Origin: Carcharhinus amblyrhynchos
Lineage: Eukaryota
Length of the DNA: 64,000 bases
Assembly (NCBI GenBank): GCA_965287045.1
Contig: OZ336873.1
Location: 75,392,001 to 75,456,000 of the forward strand
Direction of reading: 5' to 3'
In this document: one piece after another, positions 809 through 55,775 of the stretch
Position numbering within the stretch: position 1 is the stretch's first letter
Layout: the number at the start of each line of letters is the position of its first letter
Notes under the pieces: model-generated
The model's database searches: none
What the model was told of the DNA's origin: nothing
The model's input: only the letters and a program-made list of their open reading frames with translations
Translations under genes and position numbers: made by a program

Positions 809-2002
809 GATTTTGATTCAGGTTTTTGAAAGGGTAACCAAGAAGGTAGATGAGGGTAGTGCAGTTAAGATTGTCTACACGGACTTTAGCAAGGCCTTTG
901 ATAAGGTACTGTATGATAGGTTGTCGCATAAGGTTAAAGCTCACAGGATCCATGGCGAGGTAGCCAAATGGATACAAAATTGGCTTCATGACAGAAGACA
1001 CAGTGTGCTATTTTTCAAACTGGAAGCCTGTGGCCAGCAGTGTGCCTCAGGGATCAGTGCTGGGTCCACTGTTATTTGTCATTTATATTAATGATTTGAA
1101 TGAGAATATAGGGGGCATAGCTAGTAAGTTTGCAGATGACACCAAGATTGGTGGCATAGTGGAAAGTGAAGAAGGTTGTCACAGATTGCAATGGGATCAT
1201 GATCAATTGGGCCAATGGGCTGACGAATGGCAAATGGAGTTTAATTTAAATAAATGCGAGGTGATGCATTTTGGTAAGTTGAACCAGGGCAGGACTTACT
1301 CAGTTAATGGTATGGTGTTGGGGAGTGCTATAGAACAAAGAGATCTAAGGGTACATGTTCATAGTTCCTTGAAAGTGGAGTCACAGGTGGATAGAGCGAT
1401 GAAGAAGGCACTCAGCATGCTTGGTTTCATTGGTCAGAATATTGAATACAGGAGTTGGGACATCTTGTTGAAATTGTACAAGACATAGGTAAGGCCACAC
1501 TTGGAATACTGGTCACCTTATTATGGAAAGGATATTAAACTGGAAAGAATATAGAAAAGATTTACTAGGATGCTATCGGTACTTGATGGTTTGAGTTATA
1601 AGGAGATGCTGGATCGACTGAGATTTTTTCTCTGGAACGTAGAAGGCTGAGGGGTGATCTTATAGAGGTCTATAAAATAATGTGGGGCACAGATCAGCTA
1701 GATACTCAATATCTTTTCCCAAAGGTAGAAGAGTCTAAAACTAGAGGGCATAGGTTCAGGATGAGAGGGGAGGGATACAGAGGGTGATGAGTGTCTGGAA
1801 CAAACTGCCAGAGGTAGTAGTAGAGGTGGCTATAATTTTGTCTTTTAAAAAGCATTTAGACAGTTACATGGGTAAGATGGGTGTAGAGGGATATGGGCAA
1901 AATGTGGGCAGTTGGGACCAGCTTTGGAGTTTTAAAAAAAGAGTGGCATGGACAAGTTGGCCAAAGGGCCTGTTTCCATTTTGTAAACCTCTATGACTCT
2001 GA
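809..2002 (+). mobile_element. 5'-truncated, decayed CR1 LINE (RT C-terminus plus 3' UTR)
   Basis: Broken frames encode DFSKAFDKV, SSVPQGSVLGPLLF and SKFADDTKIGG. It ends in a ctctatgactct tail. Confidence 0.9.
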
Positions 2003-2007
2003 TTCTA

Positions 2008-4319
2008 AGGGAGAATGTGGTGAAGGATCCTCTTGGGGGGAGTGATCATTGTATGGTGGAGTTTCTGGTGCAGATGGAGGAGGAGAAAGTGGGTTCCCGG
2101 ACACGCGTCCTTTGTTTGAACAGAGGGGAGTACGGTAGGATGACAGAAGAATTGGCGAATGTTGACTGGGAGAGCGCGTTGGAAGGTAGGTCTGCTGAGG
2201 AGCAGTGGAGGATCTTTAAGGAGATCTTTCTTGGTGCTCAGCAGAAATTTATTCCGATGGTTAAAAAGGACCGTAGGAGGAGAGGTAATAAGCCGTGGAT
2301 AACGAAGGAGGTGAAGGAAAGTGTTAAATTAAAAGTGGAGGCGTTTAGAGTAGCTAAGAGTAGTGGGCGAGAAGAGGATTGGGAGAGGTTTAAATGTCAA
2401 CAAAGATTGACAAAGAAGGGTAGGAGAAACTATGAAACTGGGTTAGCGCTTAATATAAAAAAGGATAGCAAGAGTTTTTATAAATATATAAAAAGGAAAA
2501 GGCTGGCTAGGGTGAACGTTGGACCCTTAGAGGATGAGAGGGGGGACTTAGTGGTAGGGGAGGGGGAAATGGCTGAGGTCTTGAATAACTTTTTTGTTTC
2601 GGTCTTCATGGAGGAAGACGTGAATAATTTGCAGGGTGTTAGCGATGGAAAGGTGGTAGGACTGGAGGGTCTCAATGACATTATTGTTACTAGAGAGGCG
2701 GTGCTCAACAGACTGGAGGGACTGATTGTGGAGAATTCCCAAGAACCGGATGGAATGCATCCGAGGGTTCTGAAAGAAATGGCGGAGGTGATAGTGGATG
2801 CCTTGGTGGTTATTTTCCAGACGTCGCTGGATTCTGGGGAAGTGCCGGAAGATTGGAAAGCGGCTAATGTTACGCCGTTGTTTAAGAAGGGTGCCAGGCA
2901 AAAGGCAGGGAATTATAGGCCGGTTAGTTTAACGTCTGTTGTGGGTAAAATGTTAGAATCCGTCATCAAGGAGGAAATAGCAAGGTATCTTGAGGGGAAT
3001 TGCTTGATAGAGCAGACACAGCACGGTTTCGTTAAGGGGAAGTCGTGTCTGACAAATTTATTGGAGTTCTACGAGGATGTGTCTAGGGCGGTGGATAGAG
3101 GAGAGCCGGTGGATGTGGTCTTTCTTGATTTTCAGAAGGCGTTTGACAAGGTACCTCACAAGAGGTTATTGCAGAAGGTAAGGGGGCATGGAGTTGGGGG
3201 TAGGGTGTCAGCGTGGATAGAGGATTGGTTGTCAAATAGGAGGCACAGAGTGGGGGTTAATGGGTGCTATTCGGATTGGCGGTTGGTGACTAGTGGAGTG
3301 CCCCAGGGGTCGGTGCTGGGGCCTCAGCTATTTACCATTTATATAGATGATCTGGAGGAGGGAACCGAGTGTATGGTGTCGAAATTTGCTGATGACACCA
3401 AGATTGGGGGAACGGCAAATTGCGCGGAGGGTGTAGAGAGTCTACAGAAGGATCTAGATAGGCTGGGTGAATGGGCCAGGAAATGGCAAATGGAATTTAA
3501 TGTTGGCAAGTGCGAGGTGGTCCACTTTGGTAGGAATAATGGTAGGGAGGATTATTTCTTACGTGGAGAAAAACTGCAGCAGGCGACGGTGCAGAGGGAC
3601 CTCGGGGTCCTTGTGCGTGAGTCGCAAAAACCCAGCTTGCAGGTGCAGCAGGTGGTCAGGAAGGCTAATGGGATGCTGGCCTTCATAGCGAGGGGGATTG
3701 AATATAAAAGTAGGGAAGTCTTGCTGCGGCTGCATAGGGCATTGGTGAGGCCGCAGCTGGAGTACTGTGTGCAGTTTTGGTCGCCGCACTTACGCAAGGA
3801 CATTTTGGCCTTAGAGGGATGCAGAGGAGGTTTACTAGGCTGATACCGGAGTTGAGGGGGTTGAGCTATGAGGAGAGGCTGAATAAACTAGGCTTGTACT
3901 CGTTAGAGTTTAGAAGAATGAAGGGAGATCTCATTGAGACGTATAAGATGATGAATGGGATGGATAGGATAGAGGTGGAGAGACTCTTCCCACTCAGAAA
4001 GGACAGTAGGACTAGGGAGCACAGCCTCAAGATAAAGCGGGGGGCGGTTTAGAACGGAGTTGAGGAGGAACTTCTTCACTCAAAGGGTGGTGAATCTCTG
4101 GAATTCTCTGCCCGTTGAGGTGGTGGTGGCTGCCTCGCTAAATATTTTTAAGACGCGGGTTGATGGGTTTTTGATAAGCGAGGGGGTTAAGGGTTATGGG
4201 GAGAGGACAGGAATGTGGAACTGAGCCACGACAGATCAGCCATGATCTTAATGAATGGCGGGTCAGGCTCGAAGGGCTGGATGGCCTACTCCTGCTCCTA
4301 TTTCTTATGTTCTTATGTT
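2008..4319 (+). mobile_element. Young 5'-truncated CR1 LINE with nearly intact ORF2 RT region
   Basis: ORF 1993-3843 contains GSDH (end of the APE domain), NYRPVSLTS, QHGF, DFQKAFDKVPH, GVPQGSVLGP and KFADDTK. One frameshift near 3820 precedes QRRFTRLIP. The 3' tail is (ttcttatg)n and the copy is CpG-rich. Confidence 0.95.
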
Positions 4320-11230: not shown

Positions 11231-12484
11231 GAAAGAGAGGTTAGTTTTATTGAGAAGACCACAGGGGGATGTACTGGACTGAATGTTCAATTCCCATCAG
11301 AGGTGGGAAGGCCCAAAGTTTGGAGCCAAGGATTGCTGGGTTCTGCATGGCCTTAGAACAAAGAACAAACAAAATAACAGCACAACAACAGGCCTTCAGC
11401 CCTCCAAGCCTGTGCCAACCATGCTGTCCGACTGAACTAAAATTCTTACCCTTTTCTGGACCATATCCCTCTATTCCCATCCTATCATGTATTTGTCAAG
11501 ACGCCACTTAAAAGTCACCACTGTATCTGTTTCCACTAACTCCCCCGTCAATGAGTTCCAGGCACCCACTACCCTCTGGGCAAAAAAAATTGCCTCGTAC
11601 ATCTCCTTTAAACCTTGCTCTCGCACCTTAAACCTATGCCCCTTAGTAATTGACTCTTCCACCCTGGGAAAAAGCTTCTGACTATCCACTCTGTCCATGC
11701 CACTCATACTCTTGTAGATTTCTATCAGGTCACCCATCAATCTCCATCGTTCCATTGAGAACAAACCAAGTTTCTCCAACCTCTCCTCATAGCTAATGCC
11801 CTCTATATCAGGCAACATCCTGGTAAATCTTTTCTGTACCCTCTCCAAAGCCTCCATATCATTCTGATATTGTGGCGACCAGAATTGAACACTGTACTTC
11901 AAGTGTGGTTCTATAAAACTGAAACGTGCTTTGCCAATTTTTAAACTCAATGCTCTGGCCGATGAAGGCAAGCATGCCATATGCCTTCTTGACTACCTTC
12001 TCCACCTGTGTTGCCTACTTTCAATTTCCTGTGTACCTGGACACCCAGATCCCTCTGCCTATCTATACTCTTAAAGGTTCTGCCATTTACTGTATATTGT
12101 ACATCTATTAGACCTTGCAAAATGCATTACCTCACATTTGTCCAGATTGAACTCCATCTGCCATCTCTCCAGCCGATCTATTTCCTGCTGAATCCTCTGG
12201 CAACCCTCATCGCTATCCGCACTTCCACCAACCTTTGTGTAGTCTGCAAACATACTAATCAAACCAATTACACTTTCCTCCTAATCATTTATATATATTA
12301 CAAACTGCACTGATCTTTGAGGAATGCCACTTGTCACAGCCTTCAGAAATGCACTCTTCCACTGCTACCCTCTGTCTTCTATGACCGACATGATGTAGAG
12401 ATGCTGGCGTTGGACTAGGGTAAACACAGTAAGAAGTCTCACAACACCAGGTTTAAGTCCAACCAGGTTATTTGATAGTAAACC

Positions 12485-12520
12485 CACAAGCTTTCGGAAA
12501 CGCTGTTCCTTCATCAGGTG
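12485..12520 (-). ncRNA. Minimal type-I hammerhead ribozyme motif in a Penelope pLTR
   Basis: Minus strand reads cac-CUGAUGA-a-GGAA(cagcgu)UUCC-GAAA-gc-UU-gug: intact core, 4-bp helix II, palindromic minimal helix III and 3-bp helix I. Activity is untested. Confidence 0.72.
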
Positions 12521-13376
12521 TGTGGAAGGTTCTGATCAGAGAAGGGCATATAAAGTCACACACAGGCATAGGTTAAAGAGATGTGTATTGTCTTCAGACA
12601 GGACACTGAGTGAGATTTTGCAAGCCGAGACAAGTCATTGGGGTTACAGATAGTGCCACATGAACCCAAGATCCCGGTTGAGGCCGTCCTCATGTGTGCG
12701 GAACTTGGTTATCTGTCTCTGCTCAGTGACTCTGTGCTGTCGTGTGTCATGAAGGCCGCCTTGGAGAACGCTTACCCAAAGATCAGAGACCGAATGCCCA
12801 TGACTGCTGAAGTGTTCGCCAACAGGAAGGGAACGGTCTTGCCTGGTGATTGTCGAGCGATGTTCATTCATCCGTTGTCATAGTGTCTGCATGATCTCCC
12901 CAATGTACCATGCTTCGGGGCATCCTTTCCTGCAGCGTATTAGGTAGACAACGTTGGTCCACCAAGTACATGGCACATACTCTTGCAACTCGGCCAACGT
13001 TGTCTACCTAATGTGCCTCTGATCTTCGGGTAAGTCTTCTTCAAGGCGGCCTTCGCGACACACGACAGCACAGAGTCGCTGAGCAGAGACTGATAGCCAA
13101 GTTCCACACACATGAGAACGGCCTCAACCAGGATCTTGGGTTCATGACGCACTATCTGTAACCCCCATGACTTGCCTGGGCTTGCAAAATCTCACTTACT
13201 GTCCTGTCTGGAGACAATACACATCTCTTTAACCTATGCCTAATGCTGCATCCACTCACGTTGTCTGCACCTTTAAGACTTGAATAGCAGGTTAGCTGTA
13301 AAGACGTGTATTCTAATCAGTATTCTGTAAACTGTGTGTGACTTTATATGCCCTTCTCTGATCAGAACCTTCCACA

Positions 13377-13412
13377 CACCTGACGAAGGAACAGTGCTTC
13401 CGAAAGCTTGTG
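13377..13412 (+). ncRNA. Minimal type-I hammerhead ribozyme motif in a Penelope pLTR
   Basis: Reads cac-CUGACGA-a-GGAA(cagugc)UUCC-GAAA-gc-UU-gug. Cleavage is predicted after 13409. Confidence 0.72.
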
Positions 13413-15063
13413 GGATTACTATCAAATAAACTGGGTTGGACTTTAACGTGGTGTTGTGAGACTTCTTACTGTGTTCTATGACCGAGTCAGTTTTGTATCC
13501 ATCTTGCCAGCTCAACTCTGCAACTTCACCTTCTTTACCAGTCTGTCATGAGGGACCTTGTCAAAGGCCTTACTGAAGTCCATGTAGACAATATCCATTG
13601 CCCTACCCTCATCAATCATCTTCGTCACTTCCTCAAAAAACTTGATCAAGTTAGTGAGACATAACCTCCCCTTCATAAAACCATGTTGCTCTCACTAATA
13701 TGTCCACTTATTTTGTCTCGAAAAATCCTCTCCAATAATTTCACTACCGCTGATGTAAGGCTCACCGGCCTGTAATTACCTGGGTTATCCTTGCTACCCT
13801 TCTTAAACAAAGGAACAACATTGGCTATTCTCCAACCTTTTGGGACCTCCCCATAGCCAGTGAGGATACAAAGATTTCTCTCAAGGGCTCAGCAATTTCC
13901 TCCCTAGCCTCTCTCAGTATTTTGGAGTATATCCCATCAGGCCCTGACAACTTGTCTACTTTAAGTTTCTGAAGAACACCAATACCTCCTCCTTTTTGAT
14001 CTCAACATGATCCAAACCATCTACATGTCCTTCCCTAGACTCATCATCCACCAAATCCTTCTCTTTGGTGAATACTGATGCAAAGTACTAATTTAATACC
14101 TTGCCCATTTCTGCGGGCTCCACATATAGATTCCCTCCCCGTCCTTGAATGGGCCAACCCTCTCCCTGGCTACCCTCTTGCTCTTTATATACATATAAGA
14201 AGTCTTGGGATTTTCCTTAATCCTGCTGGCCAATGATTTTTCGTGACCACTTTTTGCCATTCTTACTTCCTGCTTAAGTTTCTTTCTACTTTCCTTGTAC
14301 TCCACACTTGCTTCGTGTGTTCCCAGTCTCTTTGCCTTGATAAATGCTTCCTTTTCCTTTTTGACAAGGCTCACAACATCTCTCATTATCCAAAGTTCCT
14401 GAAACTTGCCATACTTATCCTTCATCCTTATAGGAATGTGCTGGTCCTAAATTCTTAACAATTTACACTTGAAAGCCTCCCACATGCCAGATGATGATTT
14501 GTCCTCAAATATCTGCCCCCAATCTACATTCTTCAGTTTTTACGTAATATTGTTGTAATTAGCCTTCCCTCAATTTAGTATCTTCACCTGAGAACTCCAC
14601 TTATCTTTATCCATCAGTACCTTAAAGCTTACTGAATTGTGGTCACTGTTCCTGAACTGCTCCATACTGAAATGTTGACCACCTGGCCAGACTCATTCCC
14701 CAATACTGTACTGCCCCTTCCCTTTTTGGACTGTACACACCGCTTCAAGAAGCTCTCCAGGATGTTTTGTCACCTGTGGGCACTTTTCATTCTTGCCACT
14801 CGCCAATGTAAAATCATTGCCAGGGAATGGAGGCAGAATCCTAACAAAGGGGCAAGAAACGGGGAACACTCTATTCCACTAGGGACCCCCCACTTGCCAG
14901 CACATTGAGCCAAAGCTATGGCTGTTGACCAGTGGAGGGATTGTCCTGCACAGTGATGGCCAGACAGCTTTTTAAATATAAAATCTTTTACCTTGCCTTA
15001 CACAGGTTGAACCTTCTCTCTCTTACTCATCTCAAGACAGTAGAAGATCAACTGATATGTCAT

Positions 15064-31951: not shown

Positions 31952-33328
31952 TAAATAAAATTTACTGAAACCAAAGGCCAATAGAGAACTGGGAAATTCT
32001 TTCCAGTTCACAATGTACACAAAGATTCTTTTTATTCTTAGTATTTTGATTAGTTTGAAGCATCCCAGTCCAATGTCATATGTGGCCATAGCTCTAAGTC
32101 ATAATGAGAGTTTCTTAAAATACGATATTATTGAAATAAATATCTCCTTCATTCTAGTTCAAATAAATGAGACTTCCTTCCATAGTTTCTATCGCTTTCA
32201 TATTACATTGGTTCAATGCCACTCTGGTTAATCAGCCTTTGTATCAACTATCACTTATTAGGTCCCTATCCTTTTGTGGCTAACAAGACTGGGGTGGGTC
32301 TTGAACCCAGGGCCCTCTGGTTCAGAGACGGGAGAGCTATGTATTAAAACACTCCAGCTCAAAAACAAATTAATCTTACATTCCATATATATTCCACCAT
32401 GACATCTCTCCTAAAGTTCTATTAGGTTCAATATTCCCTCAAATTCTATTCTTAAGCACTTTAGCAAAGAATTTCCATCCATTGCTCCATTCTGTTCTAT
32501 CAAGGTCCACTGCAAGTTTTATCAATACCAACTTTGACAGATCTTTCTGGTTTACAGGAAGATCTCTGTTTCTGATGATATTCCAATCACATTTTTAAAA
32601 ATGTGCAACTCCATATTTACCAGTTTTCTATTCTCTCTTTAGCCTCTAATTTCCAGGTCATGTGATCTGCTGATGGGGAGACCAAATCACGTCAATAAAA
32701 TGCAGGCCAATTAAGGAAATTTAGAAGCACAATGATTCTGACTCCTGTCTGACCACCCAGCTCAGTGATTCATTCCCTTTGCAACTTCCTGTTGTTTTTC
32801 TCCATCTTGGTACTCATGCTCTGGTTCTTAAAAACCTTTTCCACCATCTCAGCTGCCAAGTATTTTTCAGAATGAACAGCTACTGCAAAACCTGGAGACT
32901 AAATTAGATTTGAAGGTCTGAACTGACTCTGAGACAAAGCAGAGTCCTCCAGGGAGTTTCACTCTACTTCATTCTGTCATCAAGCTACGCTACATCTACA
33001 CTGTATACAGTAAGTGAATGCAAAACCTCTTTATGACAATGTTGTAGATCCAGTGTAACGTGCACTCTAGTTTTGCCACATCCCACTTCTTGTAGATGCA
33101 AAGACTAGCGATAATTTGAATTTCTGTGAGATAATTAACTGATTTCACATTGTTTTTAATGTTCAGTCAAGTATTAGCTTGTAATCTACAGATTCATAAA
33201 CTACTTTTGACATGGGTACCGTAGCAGAGTGAGGTATTTTTGTTCACACCTCTCTCAAATGCACTTATTCTCAGATTACAAAATTAAACACTTCACCTGA
33301 TTGAACACAAACTGGCCATCCAGTCTTC

Positions 33329-33528
33329 ACAGTAAAAAGTCTGACAACACCAGGTTTTAGTCCAACCGATTTATTTGATAGTAAACGCACAAGCTTTCGG
33401 GTTAGTCTGACGAAGGGACTAACCCGAAAGCTTGTGCGTTTACTATCAAATAAATCGGTTGGACTAAAACCTGGTGTTGTCAGACTTTTTACTGTGTTTA
33501 CCCCAGTCCAACGCCGGCACATCCACAT
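33329..33528 (+). mobile_element. 200-bp Penelope pLTR fold-back insertion: perfect 80-bp inverted repeat, hammerhead core at the apex, 12-bp TSD
   Basis: 33328-33407 is the exact reverse complement of 33417-33496, with loop tgacgaagg. The core reads CTGACGA-a-GGG(actaa)CCC-GAAA-gc-TT, followed after the arm by an unpaired tail of about 32 nt. TSD catccagtcttc lies at 33317-33328 and 33529-33540. Confidence 0.92.
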
Positions 33529-33744
33529 CATCCAGTCTTCCACACAGAAGACCACGTTGCTATAGCAACATACACCTTCACATGCATACTGCTGCCTGGA
33601 GCTATGGATACTGAAGGTAAAGGCTCCAATTTCTTTCCATAACATGATTCACCAGGAATCTCTCTCACGCTTATTGCTTGCTATTGCTGTATGTTGTAAG
33701 AATTTACAAGTTGAGCCCATCTGTTTGGCCACACTGTGAACGCA

Positions 33745-37869: not shown

Positions 37870-38012
37870 GTAAGAAGTCTCACAACACCAGGTTAAAGTC
37901 CAACAGGTTTATTTGAAAGTAAATGCCAAATAATCCTGTCGGACTTTAACCTGGTGTTGTGAGACTTCTTACTGTGTTCACCCCAGTCCAATGCTGGCAT
38001 CTCCACATTATG
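37870..38012 (+). mobile_element. Short Penelope pLTR fold-back (46-bp arms) without the ribozyme core
   Basis: 37870-37915 is inverted at 37927-37972 with 2 mismatches, followed by the family tail ctgtgttcaccccagtccaatgctggcatctccacat. Confidence 0.88.
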
Positions 38013-38364
38013 ACCACCCCTCCCTCTCACCGTTCGATCCCAGTTTCAGAGTGCACAGCATCCCTTCAACTGCGTCAGCTTAGGTTCTGTCCCCCCAGTA
38101 GTCCCCAACCCTCAGGCCCTGCCATCTTGGCATTGCTCGGTAGGCACTGCGAAGTGCCTGGCTGATACTGGCCCCTGCATAAATTTAAATATTATAATCA
38201 GCCCCGTGCTCTTTTTTGGGCATGAAGCTGATCTCACTGGATATCTGGGCCCAGTAAGATCACAATAGGCAAGAAATCGGGCGCAAACCTGATTTTGTGC
38301 CTATCTCACTGGCTCATCCCATCCATCAACTGGCAGGATGAGAAAATAAGATCCCCCCACCCCA

Positions 38365-55677: not shown

Positions 55678-55775
55678 ACACAGTAAGAAGTCTCACAACA
55701 CCAGATTAAAGTCCAACAGGTTTATTTGGAATCACGAGCTTTCAGAATGCTGCTCCTTCATCAGGTGAGTGGAAT
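55678..55775 (-). mobile_element. Single-arm Penelope pLTR fragment at the CR1 deletion breakpoint
   Basis: Reads acacagtaagaagtctcacaacaccagattaaagtccaacaggtttatttgg, same family as 12389-13473. Confidence 0.85.
55733..55767 (-). ncRNA. Minimal hammerhead ribozyme motif with a C17 cleavage site
   Basis: Minus strand reads cac-CUGAUGA-a-ggag(cagca)uucu-GAAA-gc-UC-gug. Helix II is weakened by G-U pairs. Confidence 0.62.

Follow-up and report, generated by a model that had tools for sequence, protein, structure and literature searches.

The 64,000-nucleotide (nt) window analysed here (Carcharhinus amblyrhynchos, contig OZ336873.1, positions 75,392,001 to 75,456,000) contains at 12377-13485 an inverted insertion of a Penelope retrotransposon, which the original prediction, made from the letters alone, had described as lying inside another retroelement, bounded by a 12-base-pair (bp) target-site duplication (TSD) and carrying a hammerhead motif on each strand. 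This architecture was confirmed throughout. The insert is 1,086 nt in length and is flanked by two copies of TTCTATGACCGA (12377-12388 and 13474-13485, plus strand), a sequence found at just these two places in the whole window. Its two arms lie head-to-head: the left (12389-12957, minus strand) comprises a GIY-YIG endonuclease remnant with two stops, the 3' untranslated region with the pseudo-long terminal repeat (pLTR) and a tail, and the right (12958-13475, plus strand; its last TT is common with the TSD) comprises the start of the GIY-YIG domain, the end of the open reading frame (ORF), the pLTR and a tail-less end. As had been predicted, they meet at the beginning of the GIY-YIG domain, in a blunt join at 12957/12958 that falls at its VYL strand. 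The interrupted host is a fragment of a long interspersed element (LINE; 11471-14446, minus strand) with reverse transcriptase (RT) frames, which we take to be of the CR1 type. One host RT frame (minus strand; RVT_1, E 2.8e-5) reads across one TSD copy, and other host copies in one sequencing run continue from 12388 onward with the right-flank sequence of the locus; hence the duplication is genuine. Joints at this host position are seen in all four sequencing runs, and the contigs of these runs on the left half of the locus are solely family-wide pile-ups.

The arms are identical at 338 of 365 positions over three alignment blocks (203/223, 96/101 and 39/41), with 14 changes confined to the left arm, six to the right and one shared. 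The reciprocal internal deletions proposed earlier are both present: about 146 nt of the GIY-YIG domain are missing from the right arm downstream of 13016, and 92 nt of the pLTR, not about 95, from the left at 12565-12566 (minus strand), equal to 13240-13331 of the right arm. Both show 2-nt microhomology at their break points (CT in the left arm), and both, together with the 7% divergence between the arms, are likely to represent later decay. Because the right arm begins 36 nt upstream of the left, the centre forms a 19-bp hairpin with a 36-nt loop (12939-13012). This centre join occurs only once in the 2.9-Gb genome at up to one mismatch and was therefore a one-off event. Although the 77-residue GIY-YIG piece of the window recovered no families from Pfam and NCBIfam, it is 86% identical over 77 residues to the end of the intact ORF described below. 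The locus is the dead remnant of a Neptune-like Penelope retrotransposon that inserted head-to-head in 5'-truncated form. Two of its features had been overlooked earlier. One is a tail of 35 nt (12389-12423, minus strand) that only the left arm possesses and that ends at the ATG from which intact copies begin their ORF; the other is a symmetric target composed of CTG-TC at 12372-12376 and GT-CAG at 13486-13490 (plus strand; the family consensus has CTG at -5 to -3 from the TSD).

The family is abundant in the same genome. A DNA search yielded 16,754 candidates, 40 of which were scored, and exact end motifs number 21,051 for an older and 35,295 for a younger type, more than 56,000 in all. A protein search recovered young copies with an intact ORF of 893 residues in a 3,024-nt unit, so that the autonomous partner, which the original prediction had left to be rebuilt from the genome, does exist. 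This ORF, which starts at the very ATG that ends the tail, contains an RT domain (RVT_1, E 5.3e-10) and, at its C terminus, a GIY-YIG domain, the latter recovered in locus L011 with E 2.6e-4 and 21.7 bits, slightly below the cut-off of 22.6. Its look-alikes in the Atlas (0.96) have GIY-YIG on 31-34% of members, and a sequence search of PDB gave no hits at E 0.1. Ahead of the endonuclease is a CX4CxxC linker (C755-x4-C760-x2-C763). The endonuclease itself is CCHH-type, with a pair of cysteines between its VYL strand and its YIG strand; VYLIRCKKGCPEAWYIG, H822 and H838 of the intact ORF fit the motif defined in PMC8557442. The unit is repeated in full or partial tandem in L164, L166, L167 and L170, in keeping with a pLTR. 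With a single ORF joining RT to a C-terminal GIY-YIG domain, a pLTR, and inverted truncated copies with a one-sided tail and a TSD, this is an endonuclease-positive (EN+) Penelope-like element (PLE). A CX2-5CxxC linker is reported as a mark of the Neptune and Nematis clades (PMC8557442), which share the same domain order, and would place the element in one of these rather than in Penelope/Poseidon, without separating Neptune from Nematis. The insertion bias reported for those clades is toward microsatellites (PMC8557442), unlike the spaced dyad found here.

The head-to-head layout of the locus is the usual insertion form of this Neptune-like family and not a special arrangement. From the first 100 hits on contig C1, picked by a motif outside the hammerhead, we sampled L031-L120 and obtained 89 distinct ends of the older type. 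An inverted partner lay within 1,450 nt for 48 of these; the tail was on exactly one arm in 44 of the 48 pairs, and 39 showed a TSD-like repeat, a few of them spurious. A young sample of 40 loci, 13 of which were chosen for looking inverted, gave 27 closed pairs with a TSD, the other 13 loci having no pair or no TSD within the fetched stretch. The tail was one-sided in 26 of the 27 young insertions and in all 27 of a further, fresh set. Of the 27 young insertions, 23 have a TSD of 12-13 bp, as do 58 of 88 pooled ones. Head-to-head arms, TSDs and microhomology-bounded internal deletions have been described for EN+ PLEs (PMC3846280, PMC8557442), as have a one-sided tail of 30-40 bp (also PMC11167929), which here measures 35 nt and runs to the ORF start, and opposite-strand minimal hammerhead pairs (PMC4209133); layout, tail and hammerhead are therefore already published. 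The rotifer TSDs are 8-10 bp and described as variable, as against 12-13 bp here, and passages of the same two reports (PMC3846280, PMC8557442) make no mention of a flanking dyad. Separately, an independent insertion at L002:1376-2590 has a similar centre, one arm beginning at the same CAACGTTG and the other with a deletion a few bases further on, its break points differing from those of the locus. The palindrome CAACGTTG was considered as a joining hotspot on this basis and dropped, since joins in other copies are scattered and L002 had been picked by likeness.

What is new is the symmetric target of the family with its fixed spacing, which we regard as a solid genomic result. In the empty sites reconstructed for the 27 young insertions, positions -4 and -3 ahead of the TSD stand out as T and G, and positions +2 and +3 behind it as C and A, which defines a dyad of the form CTG-NN-[12-13-bp TSD]-NN-CAG. 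CTG occupies 29 of 54 half-sites in this set (background 2.9%), 30 of 54 in the fresh set, which was fetched after the motif had been seen (background 0.8%), and 28 of 80 in the older set (background 1.6%) after three of its 43 rows were removed for element flanks. In the pooled 88 insertions, which exclude the locus itself, CTG is found in 81 of 176 half-sites and TG in 111, against a background of 2%, and the favoured half-site is CTGGC. The spacing is equally constrained: CTG-Nk-CAG has k=16 in 30 sites and k=17 in 11, with five or fewer at any other k. The locus, with CTG-TC-[TSD]-GT-CAG, is a perfect fit. A two-fold symmetric site and 3' overhangs are also seen in Hpy188I and other dimeric GIY-YIG restriction enzymes (PMC3045582); this is a working resemblance only, as the stagger of such enzymes is 1-2 nt on a short site, whereas here it would be 12 nt with half-sites 16 nt apart. 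We also considered whether the endonuclease creates the short end by cutting a CTG of the element itself; this was not supported, as the majority of short ends fall short of that CTG or end within it, and CTG-N16-CAG is absent from the unit.

These observations, together with the geometry of the arms, suggest how such insertions are made. In our estimation the head-to-head insertion probably arose when the target received a symmetric staggered cut and both of its strands then primed reverse transcription on the same RNA. A more specific version, a concerted reaction in which a GIY-YIG pair reads CTG-N16-CAG and leaves 12-nt 3' overhangs while a single RNA is copied at two RT sites with two fixed starts, the palindromes being the direct product of the normal course of integration, appears to us evenly poised between right and wrong. 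Two GIY-YIG domains, or one acting twice, would read the CTG-NN half-sites, and the endonuclease would nick both strands 12 nt apart. Each nicked end, aided by 1-3 nt of pairing, would then prime reverse transcription on the same RNA, the tail end starting at the ATG of the ORF and the short end about 37 nt further inside. Both complementary DNAs (cDNAs) would stop early and have their 3' ends united by end-joining, and filling in of the overhangs would give the TSD. On geometric grounds, a TSD around head-to-head arms would require each strand to keep 12 nt as a 3' overhang that is continued by cDNA, and the dyad would place the nick 2 nt from each half-site.

To examine the ends, nicks were placed by the motif in 36 young insertions with one TG-N16-CA match, giving 72 ends, 65 of them clean. 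Element ends then map to 2983-2992 and 3021-3030 of the unit, and at 43 of the 65 clean ends the primer agrees with the RNA over 1-4 nt; the short ends contribute 23 of 33 and the tail ends 20 of 32, and the assumed chance rate is 28%. Of 26 insertions sorted by hand, the tail arm extends further 5' in 14, the short-end arm in 11 and neither in one; since either arm can be the longer, this pattern is not given by a single primed strand folding back. In the tandem locus L170 the inverted arm agrees with the 3' copy (2 differences in 410) and not with the adjacent 5' pLTR (4 in 119), upstream of which it also starts. Within a young insertion the two arms resemble one another more than they do most loci, and those of L153, L154, L156, L157 and L161 show no differences in 1995-2302 nt, indicating a single template or homogenisation. 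Centre joins have an overlap of 1, 2, 3 or 5 nt in 13 of 24 cases. The anole PLE protein likewise cleaves and extends both strands in vitro, with two start sites flanking the tail (PMC11167929).

Several points weigh against this account. The mechanism is read solely from genomic scars, and microhomology also marks end-joining and so is no proof of priming; the locus itself has 0 nt of microhomology at both its tail end and its centre. The identity of young arms could come from arm-to-arm conversion. The full CTG-N16-CAG is carried by 30 of the 88 sites, about one third, and 41 of the 89 sampled older ends are without an inverted partner within 1,450 nt, so that double priming is not obligatory. 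Further, the anole enzyme favours AT-rich DNA (PMC11167929), and the dyad may by this comparison be limited to the present clade. That enzyme, of the Poseidon element PAc of the green anole (Frangieh et al. 2024, PMC11167929), resembles the system inferred here in the two RT start sites that define the tail and in cutting and extending both strands, with the hammerhead unneeded for insertion in vitro. It differs in preferring ATT within AT-rich DNA to a dyad, and in starting 111-118 nt into the ORF without homology to the cut DNA, where here the starts flank the ATG and pairing of 1-3 nt is common. The words TSD, duplication and stagger are absent from the main text of that report.

The principal competing account invokes single priming with fold-back: the cDNA from one nick snaps back or switches template, and the second strand is cut later, with trimming of the tail, at the second CTG half-site. 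This lies near the published self-priming and 'EN-mediated resolution' ideas, in that palindromic joins were taken as self-priming (PMC3846280), and the tail was ascribed to resolution and the TSD length to sequential cleavage (PMC8557442). Arm identity is compatible with it, the order of nicks is not fixed by the dyad alone, and some centres have the look it predicts: L158 and L162 are hairpin-like, the locus itself has the 19-bp hairpin with arm starts just 36 nt apart, and among the 24 centre joins nine have inserted letters and one a 17-nt palindromic overlap. However, most arm starts are hundreds of nt apart, the same excess of microhomology is seen at both ends, and in L170 and tandem cases like it the sequence copied is that of the distal 3' end rather than that of the adjacent pLTR. 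This last point, taken with the ability of either arm to extend further 5', favours double-end priming, and we consider fold-back unlikely, at perhaps one chance among four.

A very different possibility is that the dyad is not read by the endonuclease at all and comes from repeated insertion at a small number of hotspots in host repeats, or from biased DNA shape or nucleosome positioning. Two host sites were indeed struck six times each among the 88 insertions, and the host position of the locus recurs in a cluster of six other loci and in 16 further short-end pattern matches, counted without a control site. Yet when one site is kept per host cluster (74 sites) CTG still occupies 63 of 148 half-sites and the spacing peak is still 16, against the 2% background in the same flanks, making this the least credible of the explanations. 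Hardly more credible is the idea that the locus is a functional or selected bidirectional ribozyme or double-stranded RNA (dsRNA) unit, or a member of a non-autonomous family moving as a whole palindrome. In its favour both hammerhead motifs are intact, inverted Penelope copies yield small interfering RNA in Drosophila (PMC3681739), and in 31 close relatives non-CpG changes in the core number 2 against 6.9 expected (P 0.03), although these relatives were chosen by likeness to the locus copy, which inflates conservation. The two core CpG positions, in contrast, decay like other CpGs (14/62 vs 134/682), the arms have diverged separately, and no A-to-G scar of the ADAR type was found in them (3 of 15 and 0 of 22 changes are A-to-G). 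A palindromic family resembling miniature inverted-repeat transposable elements is likewise contradicted by the single occurrence of the internal join and by the differing joins of relatives. The locus is also no non-LTR retrozyme, which consists of head-to-tail tandem units with a type I hammerhead in each (bioRxiv 10.64898/2026.07.22.740005), as its arms are head-to-head.

The hammerheads themselves bear out part of what had been claimed for them. Each arm contains a complete motif, CAC-CUGANGA-A-GGAA(n6)UUCC-GAAA-GC-UU-GUG, at 12485-12520 (minus strand) and 13377-13412 (plus strand), with the core CUGANGA/GAAA/UH, helices I and II and the palindromic helix III of the minimal type I hammerhead; by standard hammerhead numbering the cut in the right arm would follow 13409. 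Published minimal hammerheads (PMC4209133) agree in the extra nucleotide between A9 and G10.1, the G10.1-C11.1 pair, the palindromic helix III, the short helix I and the many dispersed copies, and include dual motifs on opposite strands 100-700 bp apart; they differ from the putative ribozyme of the present family in that helix II is here 4 bp long. Folded as isolated 55-mers, the motifs gain no advantage over shuffles (z -1.28 and 0.60), and no hammerhead was recovered from Rfam at E up to 10; the motif stands beyond chance through its fixed place in a multi-copy family, not through stability. Transcripts were expected to form several hundred bp of dsRNA, which agrees with a minimum free energy of -752 kcal/mol for the full transcript. 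The accompanying claim of one ribozyme per transcript does not survive the fold: helix II has a predicted pairing probability of 0.65 and 0.45 in isolation, which falls to 0.000 in the full 1,086-nt transcript of both strands. In both directions the antisense arm is transcribed first, and on either strand each hammerhead is predicted to be masked by full pairing to the opposite arm. That such hammerheads act as dimers is a published property, the monomers having failed to cleave and the dimers having cleaved weakly (PMC4209133), but no dimer is possible in cis here because the second motif is antisense. The anole hammerhead needed protein and was dispensable for insertion (PMC11167929).

Across copies, helix II shows compensatory change from one subfamily to another, and an intact motif is nothing special. 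Once inserted, the motif erodes: all 11 core bases are kept in 18 of the 31 close relatives, and core plus helix II in 15; G8 and G12, each part of a CpG, have each mutated in seven of the relatives. Two intact motifs are thus unremarkable at this age, even though no inverted insertion of the older sample has both (L054, a tandem duplicate, and L112, separate insertions, were set aside from this count). Among 192 motifs from 261 ends, four fully paired helix II variants are GGAA/UUCC (40), GAGG/CCUC (18), GGAG/CUCC (15) and GGGG/CCCC (11), and pairing is 0.67 vs 0.60 in shuffles (0/2000), with the kinship of the motifs uncorrected. Because these variants differ on both sides between subfamilies, the hammerhead is likely to be under selection in source elements; the hammerheads of the locus are inherited from the pLTR and are likely of use only in such elements, and as a two-way ribozyme the locus is ordinary and probably inert. 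The idea that hammerhead cleavage sets the 5' ends of arms was rejected, as only one of 82 arms starts within 2 nt of the cut; the starts of 16 of the 82 (L191-L240) fall within the 25 nt that lie immediately upstream of the core. In addition, pairing is predicted in both subfamilies between GUUGGACU, which follows the hammerhead, and AGUCCAAC of the tail (window 12389-12488, minus strand, and L166 unit 2929-3060), giving a stem-loop within which the short start site lies.

Some further copies in the genome deserve mention. L160 (G000:C13:53304800-53312800) and L155 are head-to-head insertions with a nearly or fully complete ORF in both arms. The palindromes L153, L154, L156, L157 and L161, with arms identical over 2.0-2.3 kb, almost no spacer and yet persisting in the assembly, are either very young or kept alike by conversion. 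At L188:4729-7552, unit positions 175-410 are inverted and joined to 405-2994 without a second 3' end, an arrangement that resembles the twin-priming inversions of LINE-1. Within the window, 17 of 21 listed long ORFs were scanned, the host frame being scanned separately and three antisense or overlapping frames left outside; Pfam matched two RT frames only, a scan that short exons would escape. These two plus-strand frames (964-3843), one of 618 residues (RVT_1, E 3e-34), belong to a fairly intact other retroelement. A second, younger head-to-head Penelope insertion of 190 nt lies at 33318-33541; it has the TSD CATCCAGTCTTC and a TG-N16-CA target, its tail is on the right arm, and a single hammerhead, with helix II GGG/CCC, is complete. 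A third, older short pair of family ends at 37870-38017 is without a hammerhead and has no clear TSD, and a solo tail-less end of an older subfamily, its hammerhead decayed (G12 changed), lies between LINE fragments at 55678-55773 (minus strand).

As a ribozyme the locus is of little importance in itself. The integration of PLEs, however, along with the origin of their inverted ends, tail and TSD, is called unresolved in PMC3846280, PMC8557442 and PMC11167929, and a defined symmetric target with a fixed stagger makes this step biochemically testable, and the genome provides naturally intact copies of the ORF along with scars in their many thousands for checking. The symmetric target also accounts for insertion hotspots in host repeats. 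If a GIY-YIG pair does act on CTG-N16-CAG, the family would represent a retrotransposon that combines a spaced dyad target like that of a restriction enzyme with two-ended target-primed reverse transcription.

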